From Candidatus Micrarchaeota archaeon (GTDB lineage Archaea; Micrarchaeota; Micrarchaeia; Anstonellales; Bilamarchaeaceae), in NCBI GenBank assembly GCA_040754495.1, contig JBFMCO010000004.1, forward strand, positions 1 through 31,268: a stretch of 31,268 nucleotides of DNA. Direction: 5' to 3'. The position numbers were made by a program, and so were the translations under genes. The notes below the pieces were generated by a model. It was not told the DNA's origin. It was given only the letters and a program-made list of their open reading frames with translations, and searched no databases. Positions 1 to 29,795 of this stretch are shown in pieces (positions within the stretch are counted from its first letter, which is position 1; every line of letters begins with the position of its first letter).

Positions 1-964
1 GGCATGTGGGCGGAGGGGGCGGGAGGCGCTCGCATCCGCACGAAGCGGTGCACCTGTGCCCGGCATCGCAGCCTCCGCGCGGAGACCTGCTCCGCGTGTC
101 GCACTGCTCGCCCAGGTTGCGCTCTACCCTGCCGTTGCCGCAGTGCGGCGGCGGGGCCTGGACCACAGGCTGCGCGGGCGCGCAGGATGAATGGTTGGGG
201 CACTGGCACGAAACCGGCGCTTCGGCATCGCAGACCGGCAGGTTCGCGTCGCAGGACTCGCGGTAGCCGTTCGGCTCCACGAGGTAGTTGTTGCCCGGAT
301 TCACGCTCTCCGGGCTTGCGAACATCGCCACGACGCGCCTCTGGGAGCGCTGGACGAGCGGGGTGAGCGGGTCAGGCGTGGTGACCAGAGGCCTGCTTAC
401 CGGGGGAAGCGCGCCCTGGCCCTCGCGCGGGCCGCACATCTGCTGCCTCGCCTGCTCCATCTGGCAGTCGTACGAGTTCGCATCCTCGAGCGGGAGGGGG
501 ATCACCCTTCCGCTGCGGTAGCGCACCTCGCGGGCCGGGTTCCCGTCCGGGCCCCTGAGCGAGACCGCGTTCCCTGCCGGGTCGCGGAGCTGGGCCGGGT
601 CGGTTGCGCTGTCGCACACGTGGTCGCCCCTGAAGCAGTCTTCCTTGGAGTAGTCGGAATTCGGAACGCAGACATTCGCGCCGCCCTGCATGCATTCCTC
701 GGGCGCAGCTGCCCTCGAGCCGTTCCGGGTCCTTATGGTTCCGTCCGCATTGCGCAGATACGGATAGGATTCCGTCTCGACGCAGCAGATGCCGTCGTTG
801 GCTACGGGCTCGCACAGCGGCTCGTACCTTCCGGTCCCGCCGCCCGGGCAGCCCCGCGCGAGAAGCACGAGCGCAGTAGCGGCCGCCACCGTGGTGGCGA
901 ACATCAGCGGCGCTGCGTTGTTCTTTATCTTCTCCTTTGCGTTCTTGTAGAAAACATTCCTCAT
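1..964 (-). CDS. Membrane-anchored Cys-rich surface protein with Myxococcus-type cysteine-rich repeat (partial, runs off the window edge)
   Basis: Not in the ORF track; translated by hand from ATG at 964: MRNVFYKNAKEKIKNNAAPLMFATTVAAATALVLLARGCPGG... It has an N-terminal hydrophobic anchor, many Cys, NDGICC and GDHVCD motifs, and CGNGRVERNLGEQCD near the window edge (TIGR02232/DUF4215-like). No stop before position 1. Starts 2 nt after the stop of the upstream ORF. Confidence 0.8.
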   Translation of the reverse strand, partial: MRNVFYKNAKEKIKNNAAPLMFATTVAAATALVLLARGCPGGGTGRYEPLCEPVANDGICCVETESYPYLRNADGTIRTRNGSRAAAPEECMQGGANVCVPNSDYSKEDCFRGDHVCDSATDPAQLRDPAGNAVSLRGPDGNPAREVRYRSGRVIPLPLEDANSYDCQMEQARQQMCGPREGQGALPPVSRPLVTTPDPLTPLVQRSQRRVVAMFASPESVNPGNNYLVEPNGYRESCDANLPVCDAEAPVSCQCPNHSSCAPAQPVVQAPPPHCGNGRVERNLGEQCDTRSRSPRGGCDAGHRCTASCGCERLPPPPPTC

Positions 965-966
965 CG

Positions 967-3009
967 TCACACCCCCCTCTTCTGCTTTTTGGCCATGTCA
1001 GCCAGGATTATGCCGTAATCCTCCCTCAGCCCCTTGAGGAGCTGCTCGCCCACGTTCTCGTTCTTGTTGTTGACCACGTACGCGAATATGTCCCTCTGCC
1101 TGTCCGGGTGCAGGGGGTCGCCGTTTACGTTCTGCGCGAAGAGCTCGTCGCATATTCTCCTGAAGACGAAGCTGCGAAGCTCGGGCCTGTTGGGGTCTAT
1201 CTCTTCGCCCTCGTTGTAGAGCTTCGTGAACAGGTTGAGCCTGCTGCGCGCGTCATAGACTATTTCGGAAAATTTCGTCAGCTTCCTCTGCATGATTTCG
1301 AGCTCGAGCCCGGGGAGCATTACTGTCCTGATGGTGGCCCTGAGCTTTGGCTGTACGCGGGCCTCGGTGAGCATCTCGTCGAATATGGCATCCCTGCGCA
1401 GCTCGTACATGTACTCGAAGAGCATCTCGTCCGTGCGCATGGCGTGCCTCACCTGCGACGTCTGGTCCTCGAGCTTCGCGTACTTGAGTATTATCTCGGT
1501 GAGCTTGTCCCGGACGTATTTCTCCTTCATCTTGTCCTCTGCAGACCTCTCCGCCCTCTTCTGCTCGCGCGCCGCGGCGCGCTTTGCGCGCACATGCCAT
1601 ATGAGCTCGGTGATGCCGAGCACTGCCACGAGAACCGCACCGAATGCCGCGCCTGCCATCCAGGGGGTTATCTGGGGGGCGGGCCTGCTGCTAAGGTGCT
1701 GCCAGGCGAGCCTCGCACCCTCGGCCATCTCGGAAAACGAGTGCTTGAAGATAAGCGCGCCCGTGAAGAGGCCGAGACCGCCCGCCCAGAGCGTCCTCGG
1801 GTGCGTGATGAACCTGCGGAACGGACCCTGCTTCTTGGAAGGTGGAGGGGGCGGCGGCCTGGACCTGCGGTCCGGCTGCGGCGCGGCTTCCTTCGGGGCA
1901 GCCTGCGGCTGCGCCTGCGAGCCGTTCGACGCGGCCTGCGCCGGGGCAGGGGCCGGGGCCGGAGGCGGGGACGGCTGGCGGTTGTTCTTTATTATCTGGA
2001 ACTCGAGGAGATGTATCTGCTTGCCGAGCGCGCCGAGGAAATCGTTGAGCGCTATCAGGTCCAGCAGCCGCACTTCCACGTCCTCGAACGCAACGTTCTC
2101 GCCGCCCGCCTGGCGGACGAGTTTCTGCTTGGCCTGCGCCTGGCATCTCTGGAGCTCTTCCTTGGTGAATGCGCCCTTGAGCTCGCCCATGCCTTTTTCG
2201 AGGTACGATTTGGCCTCGTCACGTATCCTTTTCGCGCTCTCGAGCCGGTCGCTCTCGGCTATGGCCTGCGGCTCGACCTCGCGCTTGTAAGCATCCTGCA
2301 GCCTCGCAAGGAGCGCTGCGCCTTCGGTTTGCGCCTGGGCTGCGGCCTTCCGCTTCGGCGGCTGTGGGGGCTGGAGCGTGGATTTGTGCGGGGGAGGGGG
2401 CGGCTTTGTGGTGCTTCTGACTGGAGCGGGTGCGGGCGCCGGGGCTGGCGCAGGAGCCGGAGGCTGTGCGGCCTGCTGAAGCACTGGTGTCATGTCGGAG
2501 GCGACCGTCGCCTCGAATGCCGTGCCCGGAGGCCTGGACGCCCTCGGCGGAGGAGGTGGCCTCGTGGCCGGTTTCTGCGCAGGAGGAGCGAACGCCTGGT
2601 TCAGCATGCAGCGTTCGATGACTACCTTGGCAAGAGGGCGAAGCTCCGGCTTGCCGCAGAACGATACAACATCAGCCACGCCATTCCTCACGCATTCGGA
2701 GCGGACCAGGCTGACCAGCGCCTGGGGCGAGAGCTGCATGAGGAGTGTTTCATCGAAGACGGCCTGAATGGGCTGCGATGCGGATTCGGGAGCGGAACGG
2801 GCAACTACGTCAGCCGGGGCCGCAAGCCCTTCGGCCTGGTGCGACGGCGCGTGTCCCTCATGGACAGTAGCCGGGGCTGGTTCTTCGTCTACGCGGGAGA
2901 GCGGGGGGGCATCGTCGGCCTTCGGTTCCTCGAGCGGGGGCCGGCCGGAGGGCGTTTTCCCTTTCGCAGGCTGGCCCCTGTTCCTGTTCATGTCCCTGAG
3001 TTTACCCAT
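967..3009 (-). CDS. Pro/Ala-rich hypothetical membrane protein (two TM helices between helical domains)
   Basis: 684-aa ORF in the track. ATG at 3009 follows a GGGTGTGAGG RBS-like sequence. Polyproline tracts; hydrophobic segments LWAGGLGLFTGALIF and WMAGAAFGAVLVAVLGITELIW. Confidence 0.75.
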   Translation of the reverse strand: MGKLRDMNRNRGQPAKGKTPSGRPPLEEPKADDAPPLSRVDEEPAPATVHEGHAPSHQAEGLAAPADVVARSAPESASQPIQAVFDETLLMQLSPQALVSLVRSECVRNGVADVVSFCGKPELRPLAKVVIERCMLNQAFAPPAQKPATRPPPPPRASRPPGTAFEATVASDMTPVLQQAAQPPAPAPAPAPAPAPVRSTTKPPPPPHKSTLQPPQPPKRKAAAQAQTEGAALLARLQDAYKREVEPQAIAESDRLESAKRIRDEAKSYLEKGMGELKGAFTKEELQRCQAQAKQKLVRQAGGENVAFEDVEVRLLDLIALNDFLGALGKQIHLLEFQIIKNNRQPSPPPAPAPAPAQAASNGSQAQPQAAPKEAAPQPDRRSRPPPPPPSKKQGPFRRFITHPRTLWAGGLGLFTGALIFKHSFSEMAEGARLAWQHLSSRPAPQITPWMAGAAFGAVLVAVLGITELIWHVRAKRAAAREQKRAERSAEDKMKEKYVRDKLTEIILKYAKLEDQTSQVRHAMRTDEMLFEYMYELRRDAIFDEMLTEARVQPKLRATIRTVMLPGLELEIMQRKLTKFSEIVYDARSRLNLFTKLYNEGEEIDPNRPELRSFVFRRICDELFAQNVNGDPLHPDRQRDIFAYVVNNKNENVGEQLLKGLREDYGIILADMAKKQKRGV

Positions 3010-3062
3010 CCTCACACCCACCCGCTATTGTTGTCTTAGTGAGTAAATTATGTAAATACGAG

Positions 3063-3112: not shown

Positions 3113-3116
3113 AGAA

Positions 3117-4079
3117 TCAGCCGGCAGGTATCTGGGCCGGGACTGAGATGACGCATGCGTTGCCGTCGGGCGGGGCAGTAACTGTCACGCCCTGCAGGCT
3201 GAGGCCGCTCGTGCTCACCACGTTCGCAGACTGCGGGCAGGCTCCGCCGCCGCATCTGGCCGAGGCGCCCTGGACGGACGCCACGCCGCTCTCGCTGATG
3301 CGGACGCTGACGCTCACGTCTATGGCCTGGCCCTGCGCTCCGAGGGCTTCCCTCAGCGAGCCGGCGCTCCTGAAGAGCGGGCCGGTCACGCGGTTGATGA
3401 ACTGCCTGTTGCCGAGGACCTGCGACGCGTATCCGGAGGAGCATGCGCTCACCCGGCCACCGCTTGTCCTCGGCGAGTCGCCGCCTTCCCTCCTGCCGCC
3501 CTCGCGGGGCTCGCGGGGCGTCCTGGAGGCACTACCTACCCCGGTCGGCGCCGGTACGGGCGCGGTCGGGCAGTCCGCCGCGCAGTATATCGCTGCTTCC
3601 TGCTGGTTGCACGACTCGTTCACCGGAACGCTGCCGAATTCGAACGCGCCGTCGCTGCGCTGAACAAGAGCGGAGTAGGCCTGGTTGCGGTCCACCCTGC
3701 CGTTTCCGCAGTGGAAATCAACGTCGCAGACGTACTTCCTCGGGTCGGGCGGCTGGGCCGTCGAAGGCTGCTCCCAGCCCTGGGCAATGCCGTCGCCGCA
3801 GAATCCGCAGCTTGCCGGGTCCCAGTTCGCCGACCTCGGCTCGGCCTCGGCCTTGTCGAGCTCGCAGCGGCCATCGCCGCGTACCGGGGCAGCTTCAGCT
3901 GCGACCGGCTGCTGGGGCGGACACTGTATCGGCTCTGGCGCGGGCTTTCCGCGGCCAAAGAGCAGGAGCGCCGCCACCGCGACGGTTCCGACCGTCACGG
4001 CGGCAGCGTTCTTGTAGCCGAAATATCTTGACTTGAGTTCCTTCTTCTCCCCCGATTTAACGTCCTGTGTCTGTGTCAT
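3117..4079 (-). CDS. Membrane-anchored Cys-rich repeat protein with a possible TonB-C/AgmX-like C-terminal domain
   Basis: TM segment AAAVTVGTVAVAALLLFG; GDGRCE, CGDGIAQGWE and CGNGRVD repeats; C-terminal IDVSVSVRISESGVA...APPDGNACVISVP resembles the TonB-C pattern by eye. ATG at 4079 follows GAGAGGGGTG. Confidence 0.7.
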   Translation of the reverse strand: MTQTQDVKSGEKKELKSRYFGYKNAAAVTVGTVAVAALLLFGRGKPAPEPIQCPPQQPVAAEAAPVRGDGRCELDKAEAEPRSANWDPASCGFCGDGIAQGWEQPSTAQPPDPRKYVCDVDFHCGNGRVDRNQAYSALVQRSDGAFEFGSVPVNESCNQQEAAIYCAADCPTAPVPAPTGVGSASRTPREPREGGRREGGDSPRTSGGRVSACSSGYASQVLGNRQFINRVTGPLFRSAGSLREALGAQGQAIDVSVSVRISESGVASVQGASARCGGGACPQSANVVSTSGLSLQGVTVTAPPDGNACVISVPAQIPAG

Positions 4080-4080
4080 A

Positions 4081-5127
4081 TCAAGCACCCCTCTCCTGAG
4101 CGTTCCGGTGAAGCATCCTCTCGATGCCGGTCCAGACGGCCAGCACGCCGATGACGGCGACTGCAGAGACCACTATTACCGTGTTCAGCGTGCTCGACTT
4201 TATCCAGTCCATGGTCGCGCCGCAGACAGCGAGCGCGGCGCCGAAGGCGCCGACGAACACTTCCGGGAGGTGGTCGATGAACCTTGACAGCTTCGAGCGC
4301 ACGGCCGAGCCGGCCTTCCTGGTCTTCTCCAGGGCCTGCGTGACAGCTGCCACGCCGCCCTCGACCGTGTACTCGACCTCTTTCTTGCCCTGCGCGTTCG
4401 CTCCCTGGTATGTGAGAGTCACGGACATCATGCCGCCGGAAGAATCGACCGTAACGGTCTTCGGGACTCCGAGCTCGAGGCTTACCTCCTTGATGCTCTT
4501 TCCGACCAGCACGAACTTGCACTTGTTCGCCCCTTCCATGCCCTGGAAGTTGAGCTTGTAGCGCGATGGCAGCATCGCATCATCGCCCTCGTCATCGAAA
4601 GCTACGACGCCATGCACCTTCCTCTGCGCCTCCTCCACAACTATGGGCTTCGGGGGCTCCTCTTCCTCGACCGCAAGGCTCCCGAGCGGAGACGGCTCAG
4701 CAACTTGGGGCGGGGGAGGCGGACTCTTTCCCGCAGGAGCCGCAGGCTCCTCCTCTTCTAATATAACAGCGGAGCCGCTGGAAACATCGACCGGAACGCT
4801 AGGCTCCTTTGCGGGCGATTTTTCAGCCAGCGCATCAGCGAGCGCCGGAATGGCCTCGGAGACATCAACGCCTGATTCAGCCGCTACAACAAGGGCTTTT
4901 GCAGCTCTGCCCGCCGCGGATGCCGGTGAGCTGACTGGTGCCGGCTCGGGTTCCGGAACGCTTGCAGGCGCCTCTTCGACAGGAGCGGCCGGCGAAACCG
5001 GCTCCTCCGCTCTCCTTGCCGGGGGCTCCACAAGGCCTGCGCCGAGCTTCGGCGGAGGCTGAGAAGCCGGGCCTTTTACGGCTCCGGCCGCGAGCTTCTT
5101 CTTCCTCTCGTCCCTAAGGCTTCCCAT
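4081..5127 (-). CDS. Pro/Glu-rich hypothetical protein with small beta-rich domain and two C-terminal TM helices
   Basis: 349-aa ORF. ATG at 5127 overlaps the upstream TGA (TGATG). Hydrophobic VFVGAFGAALAVCGA and VIVVSAVAVIGVLAVW. Confidence 0.75.
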   Translation of the reverse strand: MGSLRDERKKKLAAGAVKGPASQPPPKLGAGLVEPPARRAEEPVSPAAPVEEAPASVPEPEPAPVSSPASAAGRAAKALVVAAESGVDVSEAIPALADALAEKSPAKEPSVPVDVSSGSAVILEEEEPAAPAGKSPPPPPQVAEPSPLGSLAVEEEEPPKPIVVEEAQRKVHGVVAFDDEGDDAMLPSRYKLNFQGMEGANKCKFVLVGKSIKEVSLELGVPKTVTVDSSGGMMSVTLTYQGANAQGKKEVEYTVEGGVAAVTQALEKTRKAGSAVRSKLSRFIDHLPEVFVGAFGAALAVCGATMDWIKSSTLNTVIVVSAVAVIGVLAVWTGIERMLHRNAQERGA

Positions 5128-6281
5128 CACTCATCCCCTCCATCAGAAGTTTCCTTGCGGTATTCCTCTGCCTGCGCTTCGACTGCCTGCCAGTCGAGTT
5201 TCTTGAGCAGGTATTCGGAGCGCTTCGCGACATCCTGGACCCTCGCGTCTATTTTCGCCTTCACGGCCGCAAGCTTCTGGTCCTTCTTCACGGCCTCCGC
5301 GTCCTGGAGCTTGGTCACCAGGACCTTCTCGAACCTCGCGAGGATTTCCTCCACGAAGCCCGGGTTCTCCACGAACGTGCCAAGGAGCGCCTTGACCGTC
5401 TGCGGGCCGCGCTCGACCGCCACGCGCACTACATTGTCCACGTTGAGCTTGCCATCAACCATTATCGCGACAAGCAGGTCTGCGGTCACTTTCGCGTTGT
5501 CGCTGACCATCGCAGGTATCCTCTCGCCGTTCTCGCCGCCAAGCGCCTCCAGCTTGTCGCCGACTTCTATCGTCTCGCCATAGAGGAGCGGGACGATGGG
5601 CCTCACGTTGCCATCGCCGTCCACGAACGGGGCGAGCGCCGCTCCCTCGTCATCTCCGAGGAGCTGGCCTTTGAGCGTCTCTATGCCGTCGCCGACTTCC
5701 ATGACTTCTGCGTACATGAGTCCCACGATGGGGCGAACGTTCCCGTCTTCGTCCTTGAAGGGCGCGACCGCCTCTTCCTCATCGTCGCCGTAGAGCTGTT
5801 TCTTGAGCGCTGCAAGGCCTGCCTCGAGCGTCTTCACCCTCTCCTGGAGAGGCTTCACGACCTCGGCCACCGCCGCCTTGACCTGCGCGATTACATCAGC
5901 ATCAGGCTTCTTCGGAGCCGGGGATGCCGCTTCAGGAGCAGGCTTCGGGCCCGCTGGCTCGACGCTCGAGAGCGCGGGCGGCTCCTCGTCCTCCTTGCCG
6001 CCGACCCTCGCGCCTACCGGCGATGCGATGCCAATGCGTGCTACCGGCGCAGCAATTGGCTTTGCGACCGCAGGGCGCCTCGCCCTCATGTCGGTCTCGG
6101 TGGTCGGCTTTTCCTCGTCTGGAAGGTGCGCTTCCGCAGGAACCACAACGGCTACGGGCCTCGTCGCGGTCTCATCCACGAGCGGCTGCGCGGCCGGCCT
6201 CGGCCTCGCCGCAGCCTCTACAACGACAGGCGCGGCGGGCTTCTTCTTTCCCCCACCCAGAAGTCTTCCGATGTTACTCAT
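5127..6281 (-). CDS. Hypothetical protein with Pro-rich N-terminus, internal 44-aa tandem repeat and helical C-terminus
   Basis: 387-aa ORF. ATG at 6281 follows GAGGAGGGTG and overlaps the upstream gene end. Confidence 0.75.
   Translation of the reverse strand: MSNIGRLLGGGKKKPAAPVVVEAAARPRPAAQPLVDETATRPVAVVVPAEAHLPDEEKPTTETDMRARRPAVAKPIAAPVARIGIASPVGARVGGKEDEEPPALSSVEPAGPKPAPEAASPAPKKPDADVIAQVKAAVAEVVKPLQERVKTLEAGLAALKKQLYGDDEEEAVAPFKDEDGNVRPIVGLMYAEVMEVGDGIETLKGQLLGDDEGAALAPFVDGDGNVRPIVPLLYGETIEVGDKLEALGGENGERIPAMVSDNAKVTADLLVAIMVDGKLNVDNVVRVAVERGPQTVKALLGTFVENPGFVEEILARFEKVLVTKLQDAEAVKKDQKLAAVKAKIDARVQDVAKRSEYLLKKLDWQAVEAQAEEYRKETSDGGDE
5544..5807 (-). repeat. Two tandem 132-bp (44-aa) intragenic repeats
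   Basis: LKKQLYGDDEEEAVAPFKDEDGNVRPIVGLMYAEVMEVGDGIET versus LKGQLLGDDEGAALAPFVDGDGNVRPIVPLLYGETIEVGDKLEA. Confidence 0.9.
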
Positions 6282-7227: not shown

Positions 7228-7259
7228 ATGAATCACCTCAATGATTATGTCTAGTGTGT

Positions 7260-7313: not shown

Positions 7314-7322
7314 CGTGGAATG

Positions 7323-13141: not shown

Positions 13142-13151
13142 GGGAAAACTG

Positions 13152-13868: not shown

Positions 13869-13923
13869 GCAGGAGTAGCGGAAATCAGGTTTATTATAGT
13901 TTGCCAGCATCTATCAAGCAACC

Positions 13924-16003: not shown

Positions 16004-16059
16004 GGCCGGCCCTCTCAATGTTGTGTGAATTAGAAGTTTGTGTAAATCGGTTTAAAACA

Positions 16060-17813: not shown

Positions 17814-17958
17814 CGGTAAATCCGCAAATAACCTCCGCCTGTACGCCGGGGTTCCCGGCATCCGGCCTTCAGCATTCACGAAACGTTCAAAACCGGATGC
17901 TGGATGCTGAAAACCACCTGAGAGCAGCTGGTGTTGTAGAAGATGTTCGGACTAACTG
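17814..17958. mobile_element. MITE-like element copy B (145 bp, inverted relative to copy A)
   Basis: Ends CGGTAAATCCGCAA and (reverse complement) CAGTTAGTCCGAAC. Flanked by the 5-bp direct repeat TGCGG (17809-17813 and 17959-17963). Shares TCCGAACATCTTCT-N19-GGYGGTTTTC with copy A at identical spacing. Confidence 0.65.
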
Positions 17959-18017
17959 TGCGGGAGGCTCCGGTAACCCTTTTATGCCTTATCGTGCAAT
18001 TCCATTCCGCGATTCTG

Positions 18018-20899: not shown

Positions 20900-20944
20900 G
20901 CGCGGAAACACATATTTTTAATCTTTTTGAAACATATTTGAAAC

Positions 20945-22555: not shown

Positions 22556-22566
22556 CAGGTGTAGGC

Positions 22567-24207
22567 ATGCACGGCTCGAAGAAGAAGGGGCATGGGCCCG
22601 ATGGCGGCGGTCCCACCCTGGGAACCGTTCTTCCTGAGGCCGAAGGCATCCTTAAGGGCTCGATAAACGGGAAATACGACATAATCGGGAAAATAGGGGG
22701 AGGAGGGACCGCGGACATATACCTTGCGGTCTCAAGGGAAAGCGGGGAAAGGGTGGCGGTGAAGGTCCTCAAAAGCGACCCCCATATACGCTCCTCGATG
22801 GACGAACGCATGTTCATAGAGGCCAAGGCCGCGGCGATGATAAACCATCCCAACGTCATAGAGGTCCTGGACGTCGGCACCTTCGGGGACATGATATACT
22901 GCGCCATGGAGTATGTGGAGGGCGAGGACCTCGGGAAGACGATTCTGCGCGAGAGGTGCATCGCGTGGGAGCGCGCGGCGAGAATTATTATGGACGTGTG
23001 CGACGGGGCCGAGGCCGCTCACCGCATGAACATCCTCCACCGGGACCTGAAGCCGGAGAACATCGTCCTTTATCGCAAAGGCGGCGAGGAGCGTGTGAAG
23101 GTGCTGGATTTCGGGCTTGCCAAGATGGTGGGCGGCGACCAGTCCCTCACCAAGGAGGGGATAATCGTGGGCACCCCCACTTACATGGCGCCGGAGCAGG
23201 CGTGGAAAGGCAGCTATGACCACCGCGTGGACATCTATGCCATAGGCGCCATACTGTACGAGATGCTCTGCGGGAGGCCGCCGTTCATAAGCGAAGCCCC
23301 GGACGAGAAGACGCAGATACTCCAGAAGCTCATGGCCCATCTCAAGGAGCAGCCGAAGCGCCCGGGTGAATACGCCTCGGATGCCGGCGCGCCCCGCGCG
23401 CTCGAGGATGTCGTCATGAAGGCGCTTGCGAAGGAGCCGGGGGAGCGTTTCCAGAGCGCGGCGGAGATGAAGAACGCGATAGCCGCGTGCCTGCCCCGGC
23501 CGGTCCGGGAGGAGCCTGACGACGCGCCAGTAGTGGAGATAACCGGCGGCGACGAGGGCGAGGCTCCGGTTGCGCCGCAGCCGAGGCCGTCCGCCGCCCC
23601 GAAGCGCGCCTCGGAAGTGGTGCTCCCGAGGGCGGACAAGGGGCCGGCGAGCAAAGACATCGAGGAGATTCTCGGCGAGCCGCCGGTGGAGGCGGAGCCG
23701 CACGGCTGCGGATGGTGCACCTTCAGGAGGCTGCTCGCGGTCGGACTCGTAGGCGCAGCGGCGTATCTGGCTTACCAGAACTGGGGGCCCATCAGGGACT
23801 TCGCGAAAGATGCGTATCATCGCATCTCCGGCTCCGGGCCTGCGCCAGAGCGGGAGGCGCACGAGGAGATGCAGCACCCGGACCAGACATCGTTCATGGC
23901 CACGATCGAGAGCGACCCGCCGGGAGCTTCGGCGTACGAGCTCGCAGGGGGGACAAGGAGGCACCTCGGATTCACCCCTCTCAGCATACGCTTCCAGAAC
24001 GGGGAGCATGTAATCCTCGTGAGCAAGAGAGGCCACCAGGACAGGAGGGTGACGCTTAGCGAGGCGCACCCTGCCGAGCGGCTCAGCCTCAGGCGCATTC
24101 CGCGCAGGCCGAGGGTGCAGCCGCAGCCCGTCGAAGAACTGGATGAAGAGCCGCCTGCTGACGAGGCGGAGCCGCCATCCGGCGGGCAGGGAGAGGCGCC
24201 GGAGTAG
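22567..24207 (+). CDS. Second Hanks-type Ser/Thr protein kinase with TM helix and PEGA domain (tandem paralog)
   Basis: GGGGTADIY, VAVK, HRDLKPEN, DFGLAK, GTPTYMAPE, DIYAIG, GRPPF. TM segment LLAVGLVGAAAYLAY. PEGA pattern IESDPPGA...LGFTP...GEHVILVSKRGH. AGGTG RBS. Confidence 0.95.
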   Translation: MHGSKKKGHGPDGGGPTLGTVLPEAEGILKGSINGKYDIIGKIGGGGTADIYLAVSRESGERVAVKVLKSDPHIRSSMDERMFIEAKAAAMINHPNVIEVLDVGTFGDMIYCAMEYVEGEDLGKTILRERCIAWERAARIIMDVCDGAEAAHRMNILHRDLKPENIVLYRKGGEERVKVLDFGLAKMVGGDQSLTKEGIIVGTPTYMAPEQAWKGSYDHRVDIYAIGAILYEMLCGRPPFISEAPDEKTQILQKLMAHLKEQPKRPGEYASDAGAPRALEDVVMKALAKEPGERFQSAAEMKNAIAACLPRPVREEPDDAPVVEITGGDEGEAPVAPQPRPSAAPKRASEVVLPRADKGPASKDIEEILGEPPVEAEPHGCGWCTFRRLLAVGLVGAAAYLAYQNWGPIRDFAKDAYHRISGSGPAPEREAHEEMQHPDQTSFMATIESDPPGASAYELAGGTRRHLGFTPLSIRFQNGEHVILVSKRGHQDRRVTLSEAHPAERLSLRRIPRRPRVQPQPVEELDEEPPADEAEPPSGGQGEAPE

Positions 24208-24248
24208 CCCCGACATACGTTTTAAAACTGTGGATTCGCTATCAGGTC

Positions 24249-26765
24249 ATGTGCAACTTATACCTCGAAGGCACGAGGGCCATCGTCGACCTCGCCAAAT
24301 GCCCCTACGAGTTCGCCTCCCCCGAATTCCTGAACCTGCACCTCAAAGACCTCTCGACCACCGAGTCCCCCATCAAGACCATAAGATATGAAGAGGAGAT
24401 AGTGGTTGAGCTGGATGAAGGAAAGACCGCCATCCTCACCCAGTATGCGGCCTTCATCAGGCAGCTCGAGACGATACTTCTGCGCGACGACATATACGGG
24501 CTGAAGCAGGACCCCGCCTACGACAACCGCAGGAAGGTCCTCAAGAGGTTCTATGAGTACGTGTTCCTGAATCCGCTTCTTGCCGCGAACGAGCTCGCCG
24601 GGTACGATGAGCCCGAGCCTGAGAAGAACATATATGTGAAAGGCTACCAGACCTACAAGGCGTGGGTGGCAGGCATCCTCAAGAGATACACGTCCACCAA
24701 GCTGTATGATCTCGTGAAGACGACCGGGGATTTGCGCGCGGCATTCCTGGAGCTCGTCGGCCTCAAGACGCTCTACTTCGTCCCGTCGCTCGTGCTCGGC
24801 ATCCCAAAGGATGCCGTTCCCGTCAAGGGCCCTGACGCGAGCTACTCGCTCCCTTACGGCGTCCAGGTCCAGATATACGAGATACCCGGGGCTGAGGCCT
24901 ACCTGTACGTCCAGGAGAACAGGTCCATAGAGGCCCTCTCGCCGGAGCTGAACAAGCTCCTGAAGTCCACCATAAACGAGCAGTTCAAGGAGCAGTTCAT
25001 GAACGTGGACTGGGACATCCTCATGCAGCTCAAGACGAGGGAGTTCCGCCAGTTTTTCATAGACAGGGCCATGATTGACGGCATAGCGATAACGCCCCAG
25101 CAGGCGATGGCAATGGGCCGCGAGTGCGCGGCGTGGGTCGTCGGCCTCGGAGCGCACATAGAGAACCTCTCGCTCGACAAGGAGAACGTGACGGACATCT
25201 ACATAGACAGCGAGAACTCGCCGATATACATCGAGCACAGGAAGTACGGCCTCTGCCACACGCTATTCAGGTACAACCGGGACCTCCTCGAGCGCTCCTT
25301 CAGGAACATCGTCTACACTCTCAGGGGCACGAGGAAATTCGACGAGAGCAACCCCATCGTGGACGTCGTGCTGAAAAGGCTGACCATGAGGTGCCACCTC
25401 CAGAGGCCCCCGGCGACCTTCGGTGAGCTGCAGTCCGCGCTGAGAATCATGAAGGAGGAGCCGTTCACGTACGCGCAGTACCTCAACTACAACTCCTTCA
25501 CGCCGTTCTTCGCCGGCTACGACGACACGATGGTAACCCTCGGATGCTCGGAAGCCGTGCTCGGCCTGAAAGGCGTCGGAAAGACGTCCTTCACCGCTGC
25601 AAAGATAACCTCGATAGGCACCCGCAGGAGGATAATACCGGTGCAGGACATCGAGGAGATTCCGGTCCGCGCGTTCAGGAAGAGGGGCTTCCACATAGGC
25701 GCCGCGAGGGTGCAGAGCTCGGACGTTGAGGAGGCCACCACCAAGGAGCTCGACCTGGTCACGATGGCGAACGCCCTCCTGCGTATGGGCGATGCCGCGC
25801 TGATAATCAACGAGGTGCGCTCGCGCGTGGCCGTGCAGGGCATAATCAACCTGCTGAACACCCAGCCGGGCGTGTTCCTGCTCTACAACCTGCACGCGGA
25901 GTCGCTCCGCGACATCCAGGACAGGCTGGAGCTGGTTTTCGGCCTGCCGGCCGCGAGCATGTACGCTACAGACCGCTACAGCTTCCTCAAGAAGGTCCGC
26001 TTCGGGCGCAAGGGCCGCATATACCGCGTGCTCGGCTTCGAGTACGAAAGCGACATAGAGGAGAAGAAGTTCGTGGAGATATTCCGCTTCAGGAGGGGCG
26101 ACAGCATAGAAGGCTGCACGTGGGAGGCGAAATTCCTTCGGAACCCCGAGGGCTCCATGTGGGACTTCTCCAAGGTGGACATCAAGAAGCTCCAGAAGGA
26201 GCTGGACATCGCGTTCATACCGCCAGCGCTCGGGAGGAGGGCCGAGGAAACGGGCATATCCCCTGAGCAGTACATACTGCAGGCGTTCTGGAAAGGGAAA
26301 ATGTACTACGACATCTTCAAGCTCAGCCAGCAGATGAACGACAAGCTCATGCTCGAGCTCGATTTCGTCCTCAAGGTGAACACGGCCGCAGGAAGGCTTC
26401 TCGTCTCGATGGAACAGGAGCAGGGGGAGATAGACTTCGGCGAGGCGTGGGAGAAATGGGGGCCGATATTCAAGGAAACCGTCCGCACCGAGCTCGAAAA
26501 AAGAAGGGCTGGCGCTCCTGCCGTCGAAGAGGAGCCGGTCGTCGCCCCGCCTGCCGCGCCGGCAGGCGCAGGAAGGGTCGTGACCGCGGCAGCGCCGCCA
26601 GGAGCCGCTGCGCCTCCGCCTTCATCCCGCGTCGGGGAGGACGTCGAGGAAGAGGAAAAGGGCGGTGAGGACGAAGGCGAAGCGCCGCCCCCGGAGGAGC
26701 CTGAGAGCCTTGCCTCGCTCCGGGAGAAGCTGAGGGCGAAGAAGCTCGGCATCAAGAAGAAATAA
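24249..26765 (+). CDS. Type II/IV secretion-pilus assembly ATPase (VirB11/TadA/ArlI-like), divergent, with long N-terminal region
   Basis: Walker A GLKGVGKT, Asp box QDIEE, Walker B LIINEVR, His box LHAES, and an N2-like region with DIYID and RCHLQRPP. GTTTTAAAAC lies about 25 nt before the ATG, suggesting a leaderless mRNA. Confidence 0.8.
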   Translation: MCNLYLEGTRAIVDLAKCPYEFASPEFLNLHLKDLSTTESPIKTIRYEEEIVVELDEGKTAILTQYAAFIRQLETILLRDDIYGLKQDPAYDNRRKVLKRFYEYVFLNPLLAANELAGYDEPEPEKNIYVKGYQTYKAWVAGILKRYTSTKLYDLVKTTGDLRAAFLELVGLKTLYFVPSLVLGIPKDAVPVKGPDASYSLPYGVQVQIYEIPGAEAYLYVQENRSIEALSPELNKLLKSTINEQFKEQFMNVDWDILMQLKTREFRQFFIDRAMIDGIAITPQQAMAMGRECAAWVVGLGAHIENLSLDKENVTDIYIDSENSPIYIEHRKYGLCHTLFRYNRDLLERSFRNIVYTLRGTRKFDESNPIVDVVLKRLTMRCHLQRPPATFGELQSALRIMKEEPFTYAQYLNYNSFTPFFAGYDDTMVTLGCSEAVLGLKGVGKTSFTAAKITSIGTRRRIIPVQDIEEIPVRAFRKRGFHIGAARVQSSDVEEATTKELDLVTMANALLRMGDAALIINEVRSRVAVQGIINLLNTQPGVFLLYNLHAESLRDIQDRLELVFGLPAASMYATDRYSFLKKVRFGRKGRIYRVLGFEYESDIEEKKFVEIFRFRRGDSIEGCTWEAKFLRNPEGSMWDFSKVDIKKLQKELDIAFIPPALGRRAEETGISPEQYILQAFWKGKMYYDIFKLSQQMNDKLMLELDFVLKVNTAAGRLLVSMEQEQGEIDFGEAWEKWGPIFKETVRTELEKRRAGAPAVEEEPVVAPPAAPAGAGRVVTAAAPPGAAAPPPSSRVGEDVEEEEKGGEDEGEAPPPEEPESLASLREKLRAKKLGIKKK

Positions 26766-26799
26766 GAAGAGCCCGGTCGCATGGCCGGGAACCCGAAAC

Positions 26800-27957
26800 C
26801 TACGGCGCCGCCTTCATGTATTCTTCTATCTTGTCGAACGCCGAATCAAGCTGCTCCGGCTTCGGAAGGAAGACGAGCCTGAATGCCTTGCCTTCCATCC
26901 TCGGCGCGAACCCTGAGCCAGGAACCACGACCACGCCGTGCTTGAGCAGGCCGCGAACGAACTCCACGTCGCTCTTCCACGGCCCCTCGACGTTTATGAA
27001 CGAGTAGAAGGCGCCCTTGGGCGGGGCCATCTTCAGCCCGGGTATTCCCTTCACGCGCTTGACAAGGACGTCCCTGCGCTTCCTGAGCTCGGCGTTGAAG
27101 CTCTTTATGTGCTCATGCGGCCCCTTGATTGCCGCGATGTATGCCCTCTGCATCTCCCAGTTCACGGAAAGGCGCTGGTTGCATAGCCTCTGCACTGCGT
27201 CCTTGACCGGCCCCCATTCCTCCCCGTGGAAAGCGAGGTAGCCGACGCGCGCCCCGGGGTAGATGTAGTTCTTCGAGAGGCTGTTGCCGCACACGACTGG
27301 CACGTCCTTGCACATCTCCCGCATGTGCGGGATTTCGCCGTCAAAAACAAGCTGGTCGTAAACGTCGTCGCTGATAATCGGGAGCTTGCTCTCCCCGGCG
27401 ATGTCTATTATCCCCTGTATGGTTTTGCGGGAATAGACAGCGCCGGTCGGGTTGTTGGGGTTTATCACGAGGATGGCTTTGGTGTACTTGTTGATGTTCT
27501 TCCGCAGGCTGTCCAGGTCGGGCTCGTAGCTCTCGTCGCAGCCGTAGAAGTCCACGGTCCCGTAGCCGATGCGCTCCTTGGTAAGGTAGAGCGGGTAGGT
27601 GGGCGTAGGCAGTATGATGTTCCGGCCCGGGTCCATGAGGGCCTGGAACAGGAAGTCGATGCCCTCGCTGAGGCCTGATGTGACGAACACGTCCTCGGGA
27701 GCGACCTTCTCGTACTCTGCCACTGTCTTTTTCAGCTCCGGGTCGCCATCCGATGGCGCGTAGCCCGAGTAGTCCTGCTTCAGGGCCTCTGCCGCAGCGT
27801 CGAGGATGTGCCGGGGCGGCCGGAACCCGAACGGCGCCGGGTCCCCTATGTTGAGGTAAATCATCTTCGTGCCATTTTTCTCAAGCGCCTTGGCCTCCTG
27901 CACTATGTCCCTGATGGGGTAGGATACGAGTTCGCTTCTCATGGACGGTTCAATCAA
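26800..27957 (-). CDS. PLP-dependent aminotransferase class I/II (alanine/aspartate aminotransferase-like)
   Basis: LNIGDP, INPNNPTGAVY, SDDVY, SLSK (PLP lysine) YPGARVGY, and a terminal FRLVF. AGGTGA RBS before TTG. Confidence 0.93.
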   Translation of the reverse strand: MIEPSMRSELVSYPIRDIVQEAKALEKNGTKMIYLNIGDPAPFGFRPPRHILDAAAEALKQDYSGYAPSDGDPELKKTVAEYEKVAPEDVFVTSGLSEGIDFLFQALMDPGRNIILPTPTYPLYLTKERIGYGTVDFYGCDESYEPDLDSLRKNINKYTKAILVINPNNPTGAVYSRKTIQGIIDIAGESKLPIISDDVYDQLVFDGEIPHMREMCKDVPVVCGNSLSKNYIYPGARVGYLAFHGEEWGPVKDAVQRLCNQRLSVNWEMQRAYIAAIKGPHEHIKSFNAELRKRRDVLVKRVKGIPGLKMAPPKGAFYSFINVEGPWKSDVEFVRGLLKHGVVVVPGSGFAPRMEGKAFRLVFLPKPEQLDSAFDKIEEYMKAAP

Positions 27958-28054
27958 TCAAATCACCTGGAGATGCCTCTCGCTCAATCGTTATTTTTGA
28001 TTCGCCAAGAATGTTTTTATTCGTGTTGATACGTCGTATGACGATATTTTTTGT

Positions 28055-28414
28055 TCATCTCTGCACCGAGAACGTGACTCGCCGCGGGTAGCCGTCATAA
28101 ATCACGGTACGTGCAAGCGCCGCCACCCTCTCGTGGGAAGCCCCGTCCCTGCAGTTCGTGAACTCGATGCCGCTCATGAAAAGGCAAAAGCCGGCCTGTT
28201 CCTGGATGAGTGCCATCTCGGATTCCACATGGGCGCGACGGCTCCCGCCCAGGTCCCGGAGATCCCCCCTGAGATAAAGCACCCGCCAGGCGTCCTCGGC
28301 AAGATGGAGGCGGTAGAGGGAGTCGTCCACCTGGTGGGCTGGGGCGGCAGATAGCGCGAGCGACGCTATGGATGCGAAGAAAAGGAGGGAGAGCATCGCT
28401 TCGATTGTCTGCAT
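28055..28414 (-). CDS. Pilin-like small membrane protein
   Basis: MQTIEAMLSLLFFASIASLAL is a type IV pilin-like N-terminal helix with Glu at +5 counted from Met. Last gene of the cluster. Confidence 0.55.
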   Translation of the reverse strand: MQTIEAMLSLLFFASIASLALSAAPAHQVDDSLYRLHLAEDAWRVLYLRGDLRDLGGSRRAHVESEMALIQEQAGFCLFMSGIEFTNCRDGASHERVAALARTVIYDGYPRRVTFSVQR

Positions 28415-28415
28415 G

Positions 28416-28805
28416 TCAACCGCCGCATACGTAAAGCTTCCGCATCTCCTTTGACGGGCCGGCGACTACCAGGCGATAGATGCACGTCTCATAATCGCCC
28501 TGTGGCTCACCAAGCCCGACATAGAGCTCGCGCAGGCCTTCCTTCTGCCTCAGCGATTCCGCATACCCCTCTCCGAGCACGGACTCGTCAAGCCAGTTCG
28601 GGTAGCGCAGGCCGCCCGCATGGACGGCCGCGCCCTGCTTCACGGTATAATCTGCGGCGGAGACGAGCTTGTCGAACGACTGCTGGCGCTCCAAGGCGTC
28701 CTTCCCATGTTCCGAGAGCGAGGCGGCAGCCTGGGAGAGGATGGAGAGCATGAGAATCATCGGGATTATGCTCAGGAGCGCATCGAGGCTGGCCATTCCC
28801 CGCAT
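28416..28805 (-). CDS. Pilin-like protein with class III signal peptide
   Basis: MRG|MASLDALLSIIPMILML with GGAGG upstream of ATG 28805. The longer track start runs through a heptad repeat. Confidence 0.65.
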   Translation of the reverse strand: MRGMASLDALLSIIPMILMLSILSQAAASLSEHGKDALERQQSFDKLVSAADYTVKQGAAVHAGGLRYPNWLDESVLGEGYAESLRQKEGLRELYVGLGEPQGDYETCIYRLVVAGPSKEMRKLYVCGG

Positions 28806-28825
28806 CCCGCCCGGCCTCCGGCCCC

Positions 28826-28863
28826 CGGTTACGGGTTTCCGGTTTTCGGTTTCGGGTTCTCGG
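28826..28863. repeat. 7-bp tandem repeat between pilin-like genes
   Basis: CCGGTTA CGGGTTT CCGGTTT TCGGTTT CGGGTTC TCGG. Confidence 0.75.
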
Positions 28864-29217
28864 TCATACTGGCTCGGAATCGTCATTTTCGAAAACACCG
28901 CCTATCTCTATGACCTTTCCTTCGTGGGATGAATGGAAGCGGCCCCTTTCCACCGAATAGGAGACGCCCTCTTCCCGAAAATCGAATGTCATCCGCCCGC
29001 CTGCATTATGCATGGCCTCGAGCGCCCGTGCCGCGGCCTCGGCCCTGGATATTTGCTCGAGGTCGTCAGCCTTCCCCCTCAGGCCCTCGTCCATCGAGCG
29101 GAGGGAGGCTGCGATGAGTGAAACGGCCGCCAGGCTCAATGCGAAGACGAGCATGAATTCAATTGTAGCTTGGCCCCTCATGTTTCCGGTTCCCGGTCCC
29201 GCGTTTCCGGTTTTCAT
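28864..29217 (-). CDS. Pilin-like protein with class III signal peptide
   Basis: MRG|QATIEFMLVFALSLAAVSLIAASL is a canonical archaeal class III cleavage motif. ATGA overlap gives a start at 29217; an alternative ATG is at 29181. Confidence 0.8.
   Translation of the reverse strand: MKTGNAGPGTGNMRGQATIEFMLVFALSLAAVSLIAASLRSMDEGLRGKADDLEQISRAEAAARALEAMHNAGGRMTFDFREEGVSYSVERGRFHSSHEGKVIEIGGVFENDDSEPV
29181..29215. repeat. 7-bp tandem repeat at the 5' end of a pilin-like gene
   Basis: TGTTTCC GGTTCCC GGTCCCG CGTTTCC GGTTTTC (encodes KTGNAGPGTGN on the minus strand). Confidence 0.75.
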
Positions 29218-29795
29218 TTGATTACCACCCCTTCCGGAAGCTCAGAGAAGCCGCTAATCCTTAGGCTCTCCGACGAGGCGTCAATCCGCATGGCGCTCCG
29301 CAGGCGCACGGAATCGAGCGCGAAGCCGTTTTTTGCCTCCGGCACCGGCCTTAGCATGGCCTCCGCATCGGCAGGTCCGATTGATATGTCGAAGCCGTCA
29401 CCGAAATCATGGGCGCGAAGAAGGGAGAGGCGCTCCTGCACCCCGGTTTCGGCTGCTGCCCGGGCATCTGACTCCCTGAAGCACATGTCGCATAGGGCCT
29501 TGTCGCAATAGTTCGGCGGGGAGGGGAAAGGGGGCAGGGCGGCCATGCACAAGCCCGGGCAGTGCATGCAGCCGGCGGTGCTGTGCGTTTCGTCGTAATC
29601 CGAAAACCCTTCCTCGGCGCCCTGCCGGATTGCCTCCATCGCGGCCTCTTTGGCATCCATCTGCGCAAGGTACGCCCTTTCGGCAGAGATGGCCTTGGAA
29701 AAGTCGAGCGAAGACGGGGAGCCGGATACCAGCACGGCTGAAAGCAGCGCTGAAGAAGCGAGCAGGACAAGAATAAACGAAAGGTAGCCCCTCAT
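29214..29795 (-). CDS. Pilin-like/secreted protein with class III-like signal and Cys cluster
   Basis: MRG|YLSFILVLLASSALLSAVLV; CMHCPGLC...YCDKALCDMC. Confidence 0.65.
   Translation of the reverse strand: MRGYLSFILVLLASSALLSAVLVSGSPSSLDFSKAISAERAYLAQMDAKEAAMEAIRQGAEEGFSDYDETHSTAGCMHCPGLCMAALPPFPSPPNYCDKALCDMCFRESDARAAAETGVQERLSLLRAHDFGDGFDISIGPADAEAMLRPVPEAKNGFALDSVRLRSAMRIDASSESLRISGFSELPEGVVIK

Follow-up and report, generated by a model that had tools for sequence, protein, structure and literature searches.

Three modules in one genus-conserved neighbourhood is the reading that we favour for this DNA, with a probability of about one half: an old filament module lies beside a lineage-specific envelope phospho-signalling module. 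The latter has two parts, a kinase module and a PP2C/Cys-rich module, which probably work together. The window analysed here, 31,268 nt long, is an entire contig (C4) of a small symbiotic archaeon of the Micrarchaeota, order Anstonellales, from a Bilamarchaeum-like genus; the source genome is 80% complete. The new element is a seven-gene run headed by an 1848-aa PP2C protein, collinear in congeners and with kinases on both flanks.

The first-pass annotation had read the window as a single contact-sensing or host-attachment system. The parts that it listed were all recovered: a kinase-TM-PEGA pair, a pilus-type ATPase directly after it, two intact PP2C paralogues, four pilin-like genes, secDF and the Cys-rich membrane proteins, each at its given coordinates or close to them. 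The claim that they form one system was retained only in part.

The PP2C proteins and the seven-gene run

The run lies on the reverse strand. Its genes are all co-oriented, and starts and stops overlap between several of them. The first, g07 (7323–12869), encodes a cytoplasmic protein in which Pro-rich linkers accompany a PP2C (PPM) domain, located at roughly residues 1160–1480 (PF13672, 32.3 bits; PDB match tPphA). Giant orthologues with open frames of 1144–2191 aa are found in most congeners. Next come g06 (6274–7236), which is Ala-rich and is read as a coiled coil from weak family matches only, and g05 (5127–6290), which is soluble and acidic, contains an internal duplication and belongs to no known family. 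Two Pro-rich membrane proteins have collinear orthologues: g04 (4081–5130; overlapping the 3′ end of g05 at its own 5′ end), which is rich in Pro, Ala and Glu and is anchored by one C-terminal TM segment, and g02 (967–3021; 684 aa), which belongs to no known family and whose long N-terminal portion is Pro/Ala-rich, with a TM region in mid-protein.

The remaining two, g03 (3117–4088; 13 Cys) and g01 (2–970; 22 Cys), are type II membrane proteins with Cys-rich ectodomains. An N-terminal TM segment and the repeat CGNGxxExxxGExCD are present in g01. The g01 gene is cut at its 3′ end by the contig edge (orthologues are 396–491 aa long) and probably resumes at the end of contig C22, which by synteny continues C4. 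g03 is paralogous to the C-terminal portion of g01, and a further copy of it is found on C22. These proteins had been likened to Myxococcus Cys-rich repeat proteins. They are indeed Cys-rich membrane proteins, but neither Pfam nor NCBIfam called the “Myxococcus repeat” on proteins of the window, and a single g01 orthologue (21.1 bits) exceeded the TIGR02232 cut-off of 20.8 bits. The g01 family profile matches large multi-repeat proteins, and three of the six that were scanned carry DUF4215 (95–266 bits). Seven congeners (G022, G021, G011, G002, G014, G020 and partly G004) retain all or some of the g07–g01 order, at a protein identity of 22–46% and in loci of 40–66% GC. The run is a conserved unit, fully or partly collinear.

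Two further paralogues adjoin the run on the same strand. The 570-aa g09 (14306–16018) consists of an all-helical N-domain (60–311) and a PP2C domain (319–567; PF00481, 32.7 bits). In the predicted model (pLDDT 81, pTM 0.84), the PP2C fold is closest to PstP, STP, tPphA and PppA. C512, H514, C549 and C551 are conserved in the g09 family, with which the catalytic motifs of g07 align. The metal-binding Asp motifs of the PP2C proteins are all invariant; by motif and fold, both are predicted to be catalytically competent. The 549-aa g10 (16060–17709) shares with g07 and g09 only the N-terminal motif (E/H)(S/E)(I/L)AR(A/S)(I/V)A..W. It lacks a PP2C domain, belongs to no known family and has an orthologue in genome G023.

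PPM phosphatases had been described as rare in archaea. The present subfamily occurs in 31 of 40 genomes of its own genus and in none of 75 genomes of other genera of the order, with only 15 relatives in a database of 5.8 billion proteins. The same genus is the richest in Hanks kinases within the order.

The receptor kinases

Downstream of SecF (17943–19196) and SecD (19196–20899), which separate the PP2C block from the kinases, lie the tandem paralogues kin1 (20945–22555) and kin2 (22567–24207), all four on the forward strand. Both kinases are of the Hanks Ser/Thr type (Pkinase, 176 and 174 bits) and are 36% identical. kin1 has a TM segment (~381–405), a PEGA ectodomain (~437–505) and an acidic tail. 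Its PEGA match is 32.1 bits against a cut-off of 20.8, and that of kin2 is slightly below the cut-off at 20.7 bits. The TM segment is Ala/Gly-rich and only moderately hydrophobic (KD 1.4–1.45). Across 13 locus orthologues, the VAIK Lys, HRDLKPxN, DFG, APE and an activation-loop Thr are invariant, and all 13 keep the TM-plus-PEGA architecture. Judged by these motifs, both kinases look active. A TATA-like AT-rich box (20913–20921) precedes kin1.

The kinases are bacterial in type, as previously proposed: their nearest named relatives outside Micrarchaeota are from Acidobacteriota, Myxococcota and Planctomycetota, and their best PDB match is PknB. The kinase tree lacks the resolution to demonstrate a Myxococcota donor. 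kin2 corresponds by position and descent to the kinase next to the ATPase in close relatives (SH-aLRT 95), and positional orthology holds for the kinases on both flanks (SH-aLRT 95 and 99). The kinases diverge far faster than their neighbours, sharing ~39% identity over the kinase domain and ~27% over PEGA, compared with 58–76% for SecD (and SecF) and 77–90% for the ATPase.

The ATPase and the pilin-like genes

The gene that follows, g15 (24249–26765, forward strand), encodes an 838-aa protein that superfamily and fold matches identify as a diverged FlaI/GspE/CpaF-type secretion ATPase. There is no Pfam match even at E≤10. By sequence, the matches are to CpaF (4e-8) and archaeal GspE (1e-7); the match to TIGR03819 (2e-16) is far below the cut-off of that model. 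The best folds are 2oap (GspE), 4ii7 (FlaI) and CpaF. The Walker A residues G439-x4-G444-K445-T446, E522 and H549 are invariant. The N-terminal ~300 aa are family-specific and the tail is of low complexity. No platform gene is present beside g15. Three canonical T2SSE ATPases are encoded on other contigs, each adjoining T2SSF platform genes.

The g15 family is present in 41 of 41 genomes of the order, mostly in single copy and 50–90% identical. Its specific N-domain was found in 50 of 50 genomes of the order and in all six genomes from three further families. Since the ATPase occurs in every genome of the order that was searched and the kinases and PP2Cs occur in one genus, the ATPase predates them. 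A TATA-like box (24220–24227) lies ~25 nt before the ATG, so that g15 seems to have a promoter element of its own.

On the reverse strand, a class I/II aminotransferase (26800–27957; 66–82% identical in congeners) lies between the ATPase and the pilin genes in this genus. The four pilin-like genes (28055–28414, 28416–28898, 28864–29217 and 29214–29795) each encode a short leader, an acidic residue about five residues in and then a hydrophobic helix. The acidic residue is Glu, except for Asp in the second; the Glu of the third is invariant across seven orthologues. The quartet also accompanies the ATPase in several other families: it immediately precedes the ATPase gene in G026 and G036 and is nearby in G029 and G063, and pilin-like genes are upstream in G093. 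An A24 prepilin peptidase is encoded on contig C53. The probable role of this order-wide module of a stand-alone, strongly conserved ATPase and four minor-pilin-like proteins is to build or power a short surface structure resembling a type IV filament, whose platform would be encoded elsewhere or be of no usual kind.

Weighing the readings

The PP2C genes to RNA polymerase subunit E/Rpb7 (30043–30612, reverse strand), an archaeal marker at the conserved end of the syntenic block, are collinear in the genus. This synteny is largely inherited, and the genomes are therefore not independent observations, which weakens the three-module reading. Housekeeping genes are also interleaved: a VIT1-family iron/manganese transporter (13152–13910, reverse strand; PF01988, 204 bits; 63–78% identical in congeners) that lies outside the module, SecDF, HAD, DUF5885 and the aminotransferase. 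This is therefore a neighbourhood, not one operon. Further points against three modules are the nine of 40 congeners without this PP2C type that still have kinases (e.g. G018, G008, G005 and G200), the congener G023, in which the PP2C is present but the only kinase is on another contig, the two additional PP2C_2 genes (C51 and C72) and seven additional kinases elsewhere in the genome, and the failure to find an FHA reader domain in this 80% complete genome. The fast evolution of the kinases would also fit relaxed constraint or other roles.

The strongest competitor, perhaps half as probable as our preferred reading, is a neighbourhood without shared function. Here the kinases and PP2Cs would have unrelated targets in the cytoplasm, and they would lie where they do because gene order was inherited and because variable slots tolerated insertions. 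The SecD–ATPase slot does vary, holding zero to three kinases within the genus and a 927-aa ankyrin-repeat gene in a sister genus (g35). The interleaved housekeeping genes and the loose coupling of kinase and PP2C presence across congeners fit as well. Against it, the four kinases of this genome that carry an ectodomain are all located in the region formed by the end of C22 and C4, and the other seven (~300–430 aa, without ectodomain) lie elsewhere. Both of the two Hanks kinases of G002 are in this region; in G014, which also has two, one is beside the ATPase and one, of the far-side type, is at a contig start. In at least ten genomes (G010, G011, G021, G022, G099, G208, G212, G213, G214 and G216), a single contig carries kinases to either side of the PP2C genes. 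That the PP2C subfamily was found, within the order, only in the genus richest in Hanks kinases also counts against this reading.

Rather improbable is the single machine of the first-pass annotation, with phosphorylation switching an ATPase-driven filament. It resembles the Arn network of Sulfolobus, a documented precedent for phosphorylation control of a filament (PMC5007285), and the PpkA/PppA control of T6SS. Gene order speaks for it: in at least 24 of the 25 congeners that could be assessed, the gene immediately before the ATPase encodes a kinase, little space separates the same-strand genes between SecD and the ATPase (gaps of 46, 12 and 42 bp), and the block from the PP2C genes to Rpb7 is collinear in the genus. 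However, most genomes of the order have the ATPase without Hanks kinases, and nine genomes of other families have no kinase, SecDF or PP2C within 9 kb of it. In G023 the ATPase directly follows SecD, and G018 keeps the kinase beside the ATPase and lacks this PP2C type. Together with the ankyrin-repeat gene of the sister genus, the apparent TATA-like box of g15 and the missing FHA reader, these cases argue against counting the ATPase and pilins as part of the kinase–PP2C system. The points of the first-pass annotation that stand are the inherited co-location, the bacterial type of the kinases, the confinement of this PP2C subfamily, within the order, to the genus richest in Hanks kinases, and the giant PP2C run with its Cys-rich proteins, flanked by receptor kinases.

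Quite unlikely is a role of the kinases in antiviral defence, as PD-T4-6 or Stk2-like abortive-infection kinases that occupy a variable hot spot. Both kinases match the PADLOC PD-T4-6 and mad6 models (1e-60 to 1e-83), and their tandem arrangement, variable copy number and fast divergence beside slowly evolving neighbours would suit such a role; but these matches span only the generic kinase domain, which matches PknB equally well, the TM-plus-PEGA architecture points to envelope sensing, no other defence gene was found in the window, and there is no phage-like content. A fusion of Myxococcota-like bacterial DNA to an archaeal contig, suggested by the bacterial character of the kinase, PEGA, PP2C and DUF4215-like parts, is already rejected because of synteny, and the contig is non-chimeric: the gene order, Rpb7 included, recurs in 11 independently assembled congeners. 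In tetranucleotide distance, the 5-kb windows reach at most the 93rd percentile within the genome, and GC is 0.62 against ~0.60 genome-wide.

In the three-module reading, the genus-specific run encodes the giant cytoplasmic PP2C, a coiled-coil and an acidic protein, a pair of membrane proteins whose long cytoplasmic regions are Pro-rich, and two or three type II membrane proteins with DUF4215-like Cys-rich ectodomains. On both its flanks are Hanks kinases, found mainly in this genus, each with a single TM segment and a small ectodomain resembling PEGA. Gene content, synteny, taxonomic distribution and, by motif and fold, catalytic competence are what the data show; we infer the coupling of the two modules, their substrates and a role at the cell surface. 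The PEGA kinases would detect a signal from the envelope or from a partner cell and then phosphorylate Ser/Thr residues, either in the Pro-rich cytoplasmic portions of the envelope complex or in its scaffolds. The PP2C proteins, tethered to the complex through their large non-catalytic regions, would undo this phosphorylation. From their adjacency, it is possible that the kinases also control the filament module.

Contig integrity and gene order

The window is the complete contig C4 of a bin of 1.63 Mb (72 contigs, 80% complete, 1.5% contaminated), with a GC content of 0.62 versus about 0.60 for the bin. Its placement in the Micrarchaeota is supported by RpoE/Rpb7 and SecDF, and by the names carried by near-identical proteins ('Candidatus Micrarchaeota archaeon', 'Candidatus Bilamarchaeum dharawalense', 'Candidatus Bilamarchaeum sp.'). 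The order is 'Ca. Anstonellales' in the scheme of PMC8561730, where kinases and phosphatases are unmentioned.

The first-pass annotation had joined the receptor kinases, PP2C phosphatases, pilus-type ATPase, pilins, and Cys-rich proteins into a single system, a proposal that depended on the contig being sound and on linkage of the genes in related genomes. A chimeric contig is ruled out by synteny and the tetranucleotide profile: every 5-kb window of C4 lies at or below the 93rd percentile of its own genome's distances. The order PP2C genes, (VIT1), SecF, SecD, kinase(s), ATPase, aminotransferase, pilins, RpoE was found in 11 of the 11 congeners examined (members of the Bilamarchaeum-like genus), some with gaps, and co-location is conserved in the genus. 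The order from g07 to g01 is retained, whole or in part, in seven congeners, at a locus GC of 40% to 66%. The genomes are non-independent observations, because synteny within a genus is mostly inherited. The listed parts are real (kinases, ATPase, PP2C, pilin-like, SecDF, and Cys-rich genes are all present), with qualifiers on the PEGA, ATPase, pilin, and repeat calls. Separately, the loci L041-L049, which belong to one GTDB genus, range from 40-66% GC yet keep their gene order; this is an unusually wide range for a genus.

Housekeeping genes are interspersed across the whole region. VIT1 lies at 13152-13910 (minus strand), SecF and SecD at 17943-20899 (plus strand; SecD_SecF_C and Sec_GG profiles matched), the aminotransferase at 26800-27957 (minus), and RpoE at 30043-30612 (minus). 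At the right end, the gene at 30715-31266 (minus) is multi-copy, with at least 10 paralogues in the genome (on C62, C46, C7, and C69, two each on C56 and C51, and others). Its product has a Cys-rich N-terminal part, a weak CarboxypepD_reg-like match, a C-terminal transmembrane (TM) anchor, and a basic tail; the family probably comprises surface proteins.

Receptor kinases and PP2C proteins

The tandem genes kin1 (20945-22555, plus) and kin2 (22567-24207, plus) match the Pkinase profile at 176.4 and 174.4 bits (cut-off 31.7). Both contain the complete set of Hanks catalytic residues, and K76, E101, H174-R175-D176, K178, N181, D197-F198-G199, and P226-E227 are invariant among 13 same-locus congener orthologues. 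The PADLOC kinase models match both proteins through the generic kinase domain alone. A variable linker joins the kinase domain to a TM segment of moderate hydrophobicity, beyond which lies a PEGA-like domain (PF08308). This domain scores 32.1 bits in kin1 and 20.7 bits in kin2, 0.1 below the cut-off of 20.8, and only a hydropathy scan places it past the TM segment.

The first-pass annotation had linked this architecture to the Myxococcota. The closest named relatives of kin1 outside the Micrarchaeota do come from bacteria (Vicinamibacterales, Polyangiaceae, Myxococcota, and Planctomycetota), and at 30-42% they are about as identical to kin1 as its congeneric paralogues are. A Myxococcota origin, however, is unsupported by the kinase-domain tree, which singles out no donor. 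In this tree of 46 sequences (11 from the genome itself, 16 from relatives, 10 named bacterial, and 9 unnamed), 26 of 43 inner branches are open and the bacterial rows are mixed in with no separation. The tree does recover the two flanking kinases of close relatives as positional orthologues (SH-aLRT 95 and 99).

The kinases between SecD and the ATPase evolve much faster than the neighboring genes. Identity at this slot is approximately 39% for the kinase domain and 27% for PEGA, compared with 58-76% for SecD and 77-90% for the ATPase. Their number within the genus varies from 0 (G023) to 3 (G021). True Hanks kinases are concentrated in this one genus, with 1-15 per genome and a few scattered cases elsewhere. 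In the sister genus g35, the slot holds no kinases and is occupied by a gene for a 927-aa ankyrin-repeat protein (L059, G192:C5, 10527-13310, minus). With kinases in one genus and an ankyrin-repeat gene in its sister, the slot acts like a hot spot where lineage-specific genes are placed.

Two window proteins carry a PP2C domain: g09 (14306-16018, minus; PF00481, 32.7 bits, cut-off 20.3) and the 1848-aa g07 (7323-12869, minus; PF13672, 32.3 bits, cut-off 24). Assignment to the PPM family was based on the metal-binding acidic motifs (xxD, DGxxG, GDS, DG, DD/DN) together with, for g09, a modelled PP2C fold. Every one of these motifs is retained in both proteins; the invariant residues are N343, D345, D366-G367, D444, D505-G506, and D559-D560. 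The model of g09 (pLDDT 81, pTM 0.84) shows the PP2C fold with an all-helical domain ahead of it, and the fold is nearest to PstP (1txo, E 6e-10, TM by target 0.67), STP, tPphA, and PppA. An N-terminal motif is common to g07, g09, and g10 (16060-17709, minus), a paralogue without PP2C; g07 and g09 also have the helical region and the PP2C domain in common. Outside the classical PPM motifs, C512, H514, C549, and C551 (g09 numbering) are invariant across the Micrarchaeota PP2C subfamily and could possibly form an extra metal (Zn) site.

This type of PP2C is present in 31 of 40 genomes of the genus and in 0 of 75 elsewhere in the order. Nine congeners lack it and retain the kinases, and no PP2C_2 match was found in the other kinase-bearing genera of the order. 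The genome has two further PP2C_2-type genes (C51:54116-54610 and C72:4790-5302), both on contigs with no kinase match.

The kinases and phosphatases resemble the bacterial receptor kinase/PP2C pairs PknB/PstP of Mycobacterium, PrkC/PrpC, StkP/PhpP, and PpkA/PppA of the Pseudomonas T6SS. The kinases combine a kinase domain, whose best solved relatives are PknB, PknA, StkP, and PknE, with one TM segment and a predicted extracellular sensor domain; the PP2C fold is near that of the bacterial enzymes; and the writer and eraser genes lie near genes for membrane or envelope proteins. In contrast to the bacterial pairs, the host is a DPANN archaeon and the ectodomain is a single PEGA-like domain rather than PASTA. 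The phosphatases are soluble multi-domain proteins of 570 and 1848 aa, not small membrane-anchored enzymes, and belong to a subfamily found in the Bilamarchaeum-like genus only. The kinase and PP2C genes are kilobases apart and have no common operon.

The PP2C operon and its flanking kinases

What is new here is the PP2C operon and its flanking kinases. Downstream of g07, on the minus strand, lie g06 (coiled coil, 6274-7236), g05 (acidic with an internal repeat, 5127-6290), g04 (Pro-rich and tail-anchored, 4081-5130), g03 (a Cys-rich membrane protein, 3117-4088), g02 (a Pro-rich membrane protein, 967-3021), and g01 (a Cys-rich membrane protein truncated by the contig end, 2-970). From g07 to g03, neighboring genes overlap or leave short gaps, and the order g07-g06-g05-g04-g03-g02-g01 is retained in congeners despite protein identities of 22-46%. 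Besides g07, the run is predicted to encode two soluble proteins of coiled-coil or acidic character, two membrane proteins in which long stretches are Pro-rich, and type II membrane proteins rich in Cys. There was no usable match for g01-g06 and g10 in Pfam, NCBIfam, PADLOC, or PHROGs, nor for g10 in an ESM Atlas look-up.

The first-pass annotation had noted membrane proteins with Cys-rich repeats and called Myxococcus Cys-rich repeats typical of the Myxococcota. The g01 family does resemble the DUF4215/TIGR02232 'Myxococcus cysteine-rich repeat' proteins in its CGNGxxExxxGExCD repeats, with one to four per g01 orthologue, and one orthologue exceeds the TIGR02232 cut-off (21.1 bits, cut-off 20.8; others 12.8, 11.6, and 7.7). 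The window's own Cys-rich proteins, by contrast, have no TIGR02232 or DUF4215 match above threshold. A g01-family profile retrieves large multi-repeat proteins, and three of the six scanned match DUF4215 at 95-266 bits. The g01 family differs from these in having few, diverged repeats inside a type II membrane protein of 400-490 aa, and in adding family-specific N- and C-terminal domains.

Contig C4 begins within g01. The end of contig C22 (L050, G000:C22:69000-88907, at 18580-19906) holds the missing C-terminal region of g01, and beyond it come another g03-like gene, HAD, DUF5885, and a second pair of kinases, both TM/PEGA-like (L050 12508-14703 and 14705-16516). This is exactly the gene order found beyond g01 in G022, G021, and G011. 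There is no overlap between the two contigs, and the g01 Cys-rich repeat is the site of the assembly break; very probably, the end of C22 adjoins the start of C4. The C22-C4 region contains all four of the genome's kinases that have both a TM segment and an ectodomain; its seven remaining kinases are proteins of about 300-430 aa that lack an ectodomain.

Kinases on both sides of the PP2C genes were observed on a single contig in at least 10 congeners. G002 has two Hanks kinases only, one beside the ATPase and the other approximately 13 kb beyond the Cys-rich genes, where its partner is a conserved protein of 497 aa. Of the two in G014, one likewise neighbors the ATPase; the second is of the far-side type, has the same partner, and is at the start of another contig. 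In G023, PP2C is present and the sole kinase is on a different contig. The partner is a Cys-free protein of 497-523 aa of no known family; in every case, it forms a divergent pair with the receptor kinase of the far side (G000, G002, G014, G021, and G022; L050 10983-12476, minus; L071 5917-7461; L072 2425-3993). It is a candidate partner or substrate of that kinase.

The ATPase, the pilins, and their relation to the kinases

The ATPase g15 (24249-26765, plus) has no T2SSE match in Pfam, even at E<=10. Its best sequence matches are CpaF and archaeal GspE; by fold they are GspE (2oap, from A. fulgidus), FlaI (4ii7), and CpaF. The residues of the Walker A, Asp box, catalytic Glu, and His box are invariant. 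The AlphaFold model was built on a 19-sequence alignment and its ATPase core (residues 434-565) is below pLDDT 50, so the fold matches rest partly on the flanking domains. Taken together, PDB sequence and fold matches (with this low-confidence core) and the conserved motifs point to membership of the secretion-ATPase superfamily. Like FlaI/ArlI, GspE, PilB, and bacterial TadA/CpaF, g15 keeps the catalytic boxes and has pilin-like genes nearby. It differs from them in its length of 838 aa, in an N-terminal domain of approximately 300 aa that is particular to the family, and in a C-terminal extension. The N-terminus (24249-24350) contains Cys2, Cys18, and a nearly invariant His31, and in other families it contains three to four Cys; this may be a small element that binds metal and is peculiar to this family of ATPases.

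A further difference is that a profile search of the genome found no T2SSF platform gene on C4; all six T2SSF matches are beside three canonical T2SSE ATPases on C51, C53, and C23. Type IV filament machinery comprises an ATPase, a platform, and pilin, together with a class III signal peptidase (PMC13705601). An A24 prepilin peptidase match is on C53 (27.6 bits). The four pilin-like genes (28055-29795, minus) had no match in a pilin HMM search. Each encodes a short leader, an acidic residue approximately five residues in, and then a hydrophobic helix, and in the gene at 28864-29217 the Glu is the sole invariant column across families. On this N-terminal motif we describe them as pilin-like, with predicted leader cleavage.

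The ATPase was present in 41 of 41 sampled genomes of the order, mostly in one copy and at 50-90% identity. Its N-terminal 300 residues were found in 50 of 50 genomes of the order and in six of six genomes of three further families, and not in 94 genomes of the class's other families. Within 9 kb of it, nine genomes of other families have no other window gene. In G026 and G036, four small pilin-like genes directly precede the ATPase on its upstream side, and in G029 and G063 they are 2.5-4 kb off; in G093, four lie within approximately 4 kb upstream, three of them immediately before it. This recurrence lends moderate support to a link between ATPase and pilin genes. Further neighbors of the ATPase in other families (L031-L039) are a Drg/Obg-like GTPase and a small secreted protein family (~110-136 aa), each in five of nine loci.

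An AT-rich TTTTAAAA box lies 22-29 nt ahead of the ATPase ATG, and a similar box precedes kin1. Both were found by eye in the intergenic sequences, as a sigma-70 promoter scan is unsuited to an archaeon. The boxes suggest that kin1 and the ATPase are separate, leaderless transcription units.

Only part of the proposed single system is retained. The kinases, PP2C genes, and Cys-rich run are neighbors in the genus, with kinases on both flanks. The ATPase and the pilin-like genes form a module of greater age that is separate and independently conserved, the ATPase being order-wide. The best-supported reading has two components: a genus-specific envelope phospho-signaling module, adjoined by the older ATPase/pilin module. 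The former would consist of the PEGA-type receptor kinases, the giant PP2C proteins, and a complex in which membrane proteins rich in Cys are joined by others rich in Pro. From adjacency alone, kinase control of the ATPase is possible.

Experiments on archaeal Ser/Thr phospho-signaling come mainly from Sulfolobus. The Arn network of its archaellum (ArnA/B/C/D/S and Saci-PP2A; PMC5007285) likewise combines archaeal Hanks kinases with a Ser/Thr phosphatase. There, the phosphatase belongs to the PPP family, and FHA/vWA repressors of transcription serve as readers (PMC5007285). The window phosphatases, in contrast, belong to the PPM family, and a search of the 80% complete genome found no FHA domain (PF00498, as in an ArnA-like reader). 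An analogous logic would need the phosphatases and kinases to act on the type-IV-filament machine; here, the kinases are linked to the ATPase by adjacency.

A more ambitious reading, which we consider improbable, is a genus-specific, envelope-spanning phospho-switch that governs host attachment. PEGA-ectodomain receptor kinases acquired from bacteria, with the giant scaffold-type PP2Cs, would control a complex in which DUF4215-like adhesins, rich in Cys, accompany Pro-rich membrane proteins. The adjacent kinases would also govern the order-wide orphan ATPase/pilin filament, and host-cell attachment would come under reversible Ser/Thr phosphorylation.

Archaeal PPM phosphatases are barely studied; a single enzyme, that of Thermoplasma volcanium, is cited in a review from 2016 (PMC5007285). 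The Micrarchaeota and DPANN papers that we found do not mention receptor-type kinases or PP2C. The order-wide, stand-alone ATPase with four pilin-like genes and no adjoining platform gene is a separate question for work on type IV filaments. This Micrarchaeota genus has bacterial-type Hanks kinases, and it has very large PP2C proteins of a subfamily all its own, embedded in a run of surface-protein genes that is conserved. Should the coupling be real, this would be a compact, testable case of a host-dependent archaeon sensing and remodeling its contact surface with bacterial-type parts.
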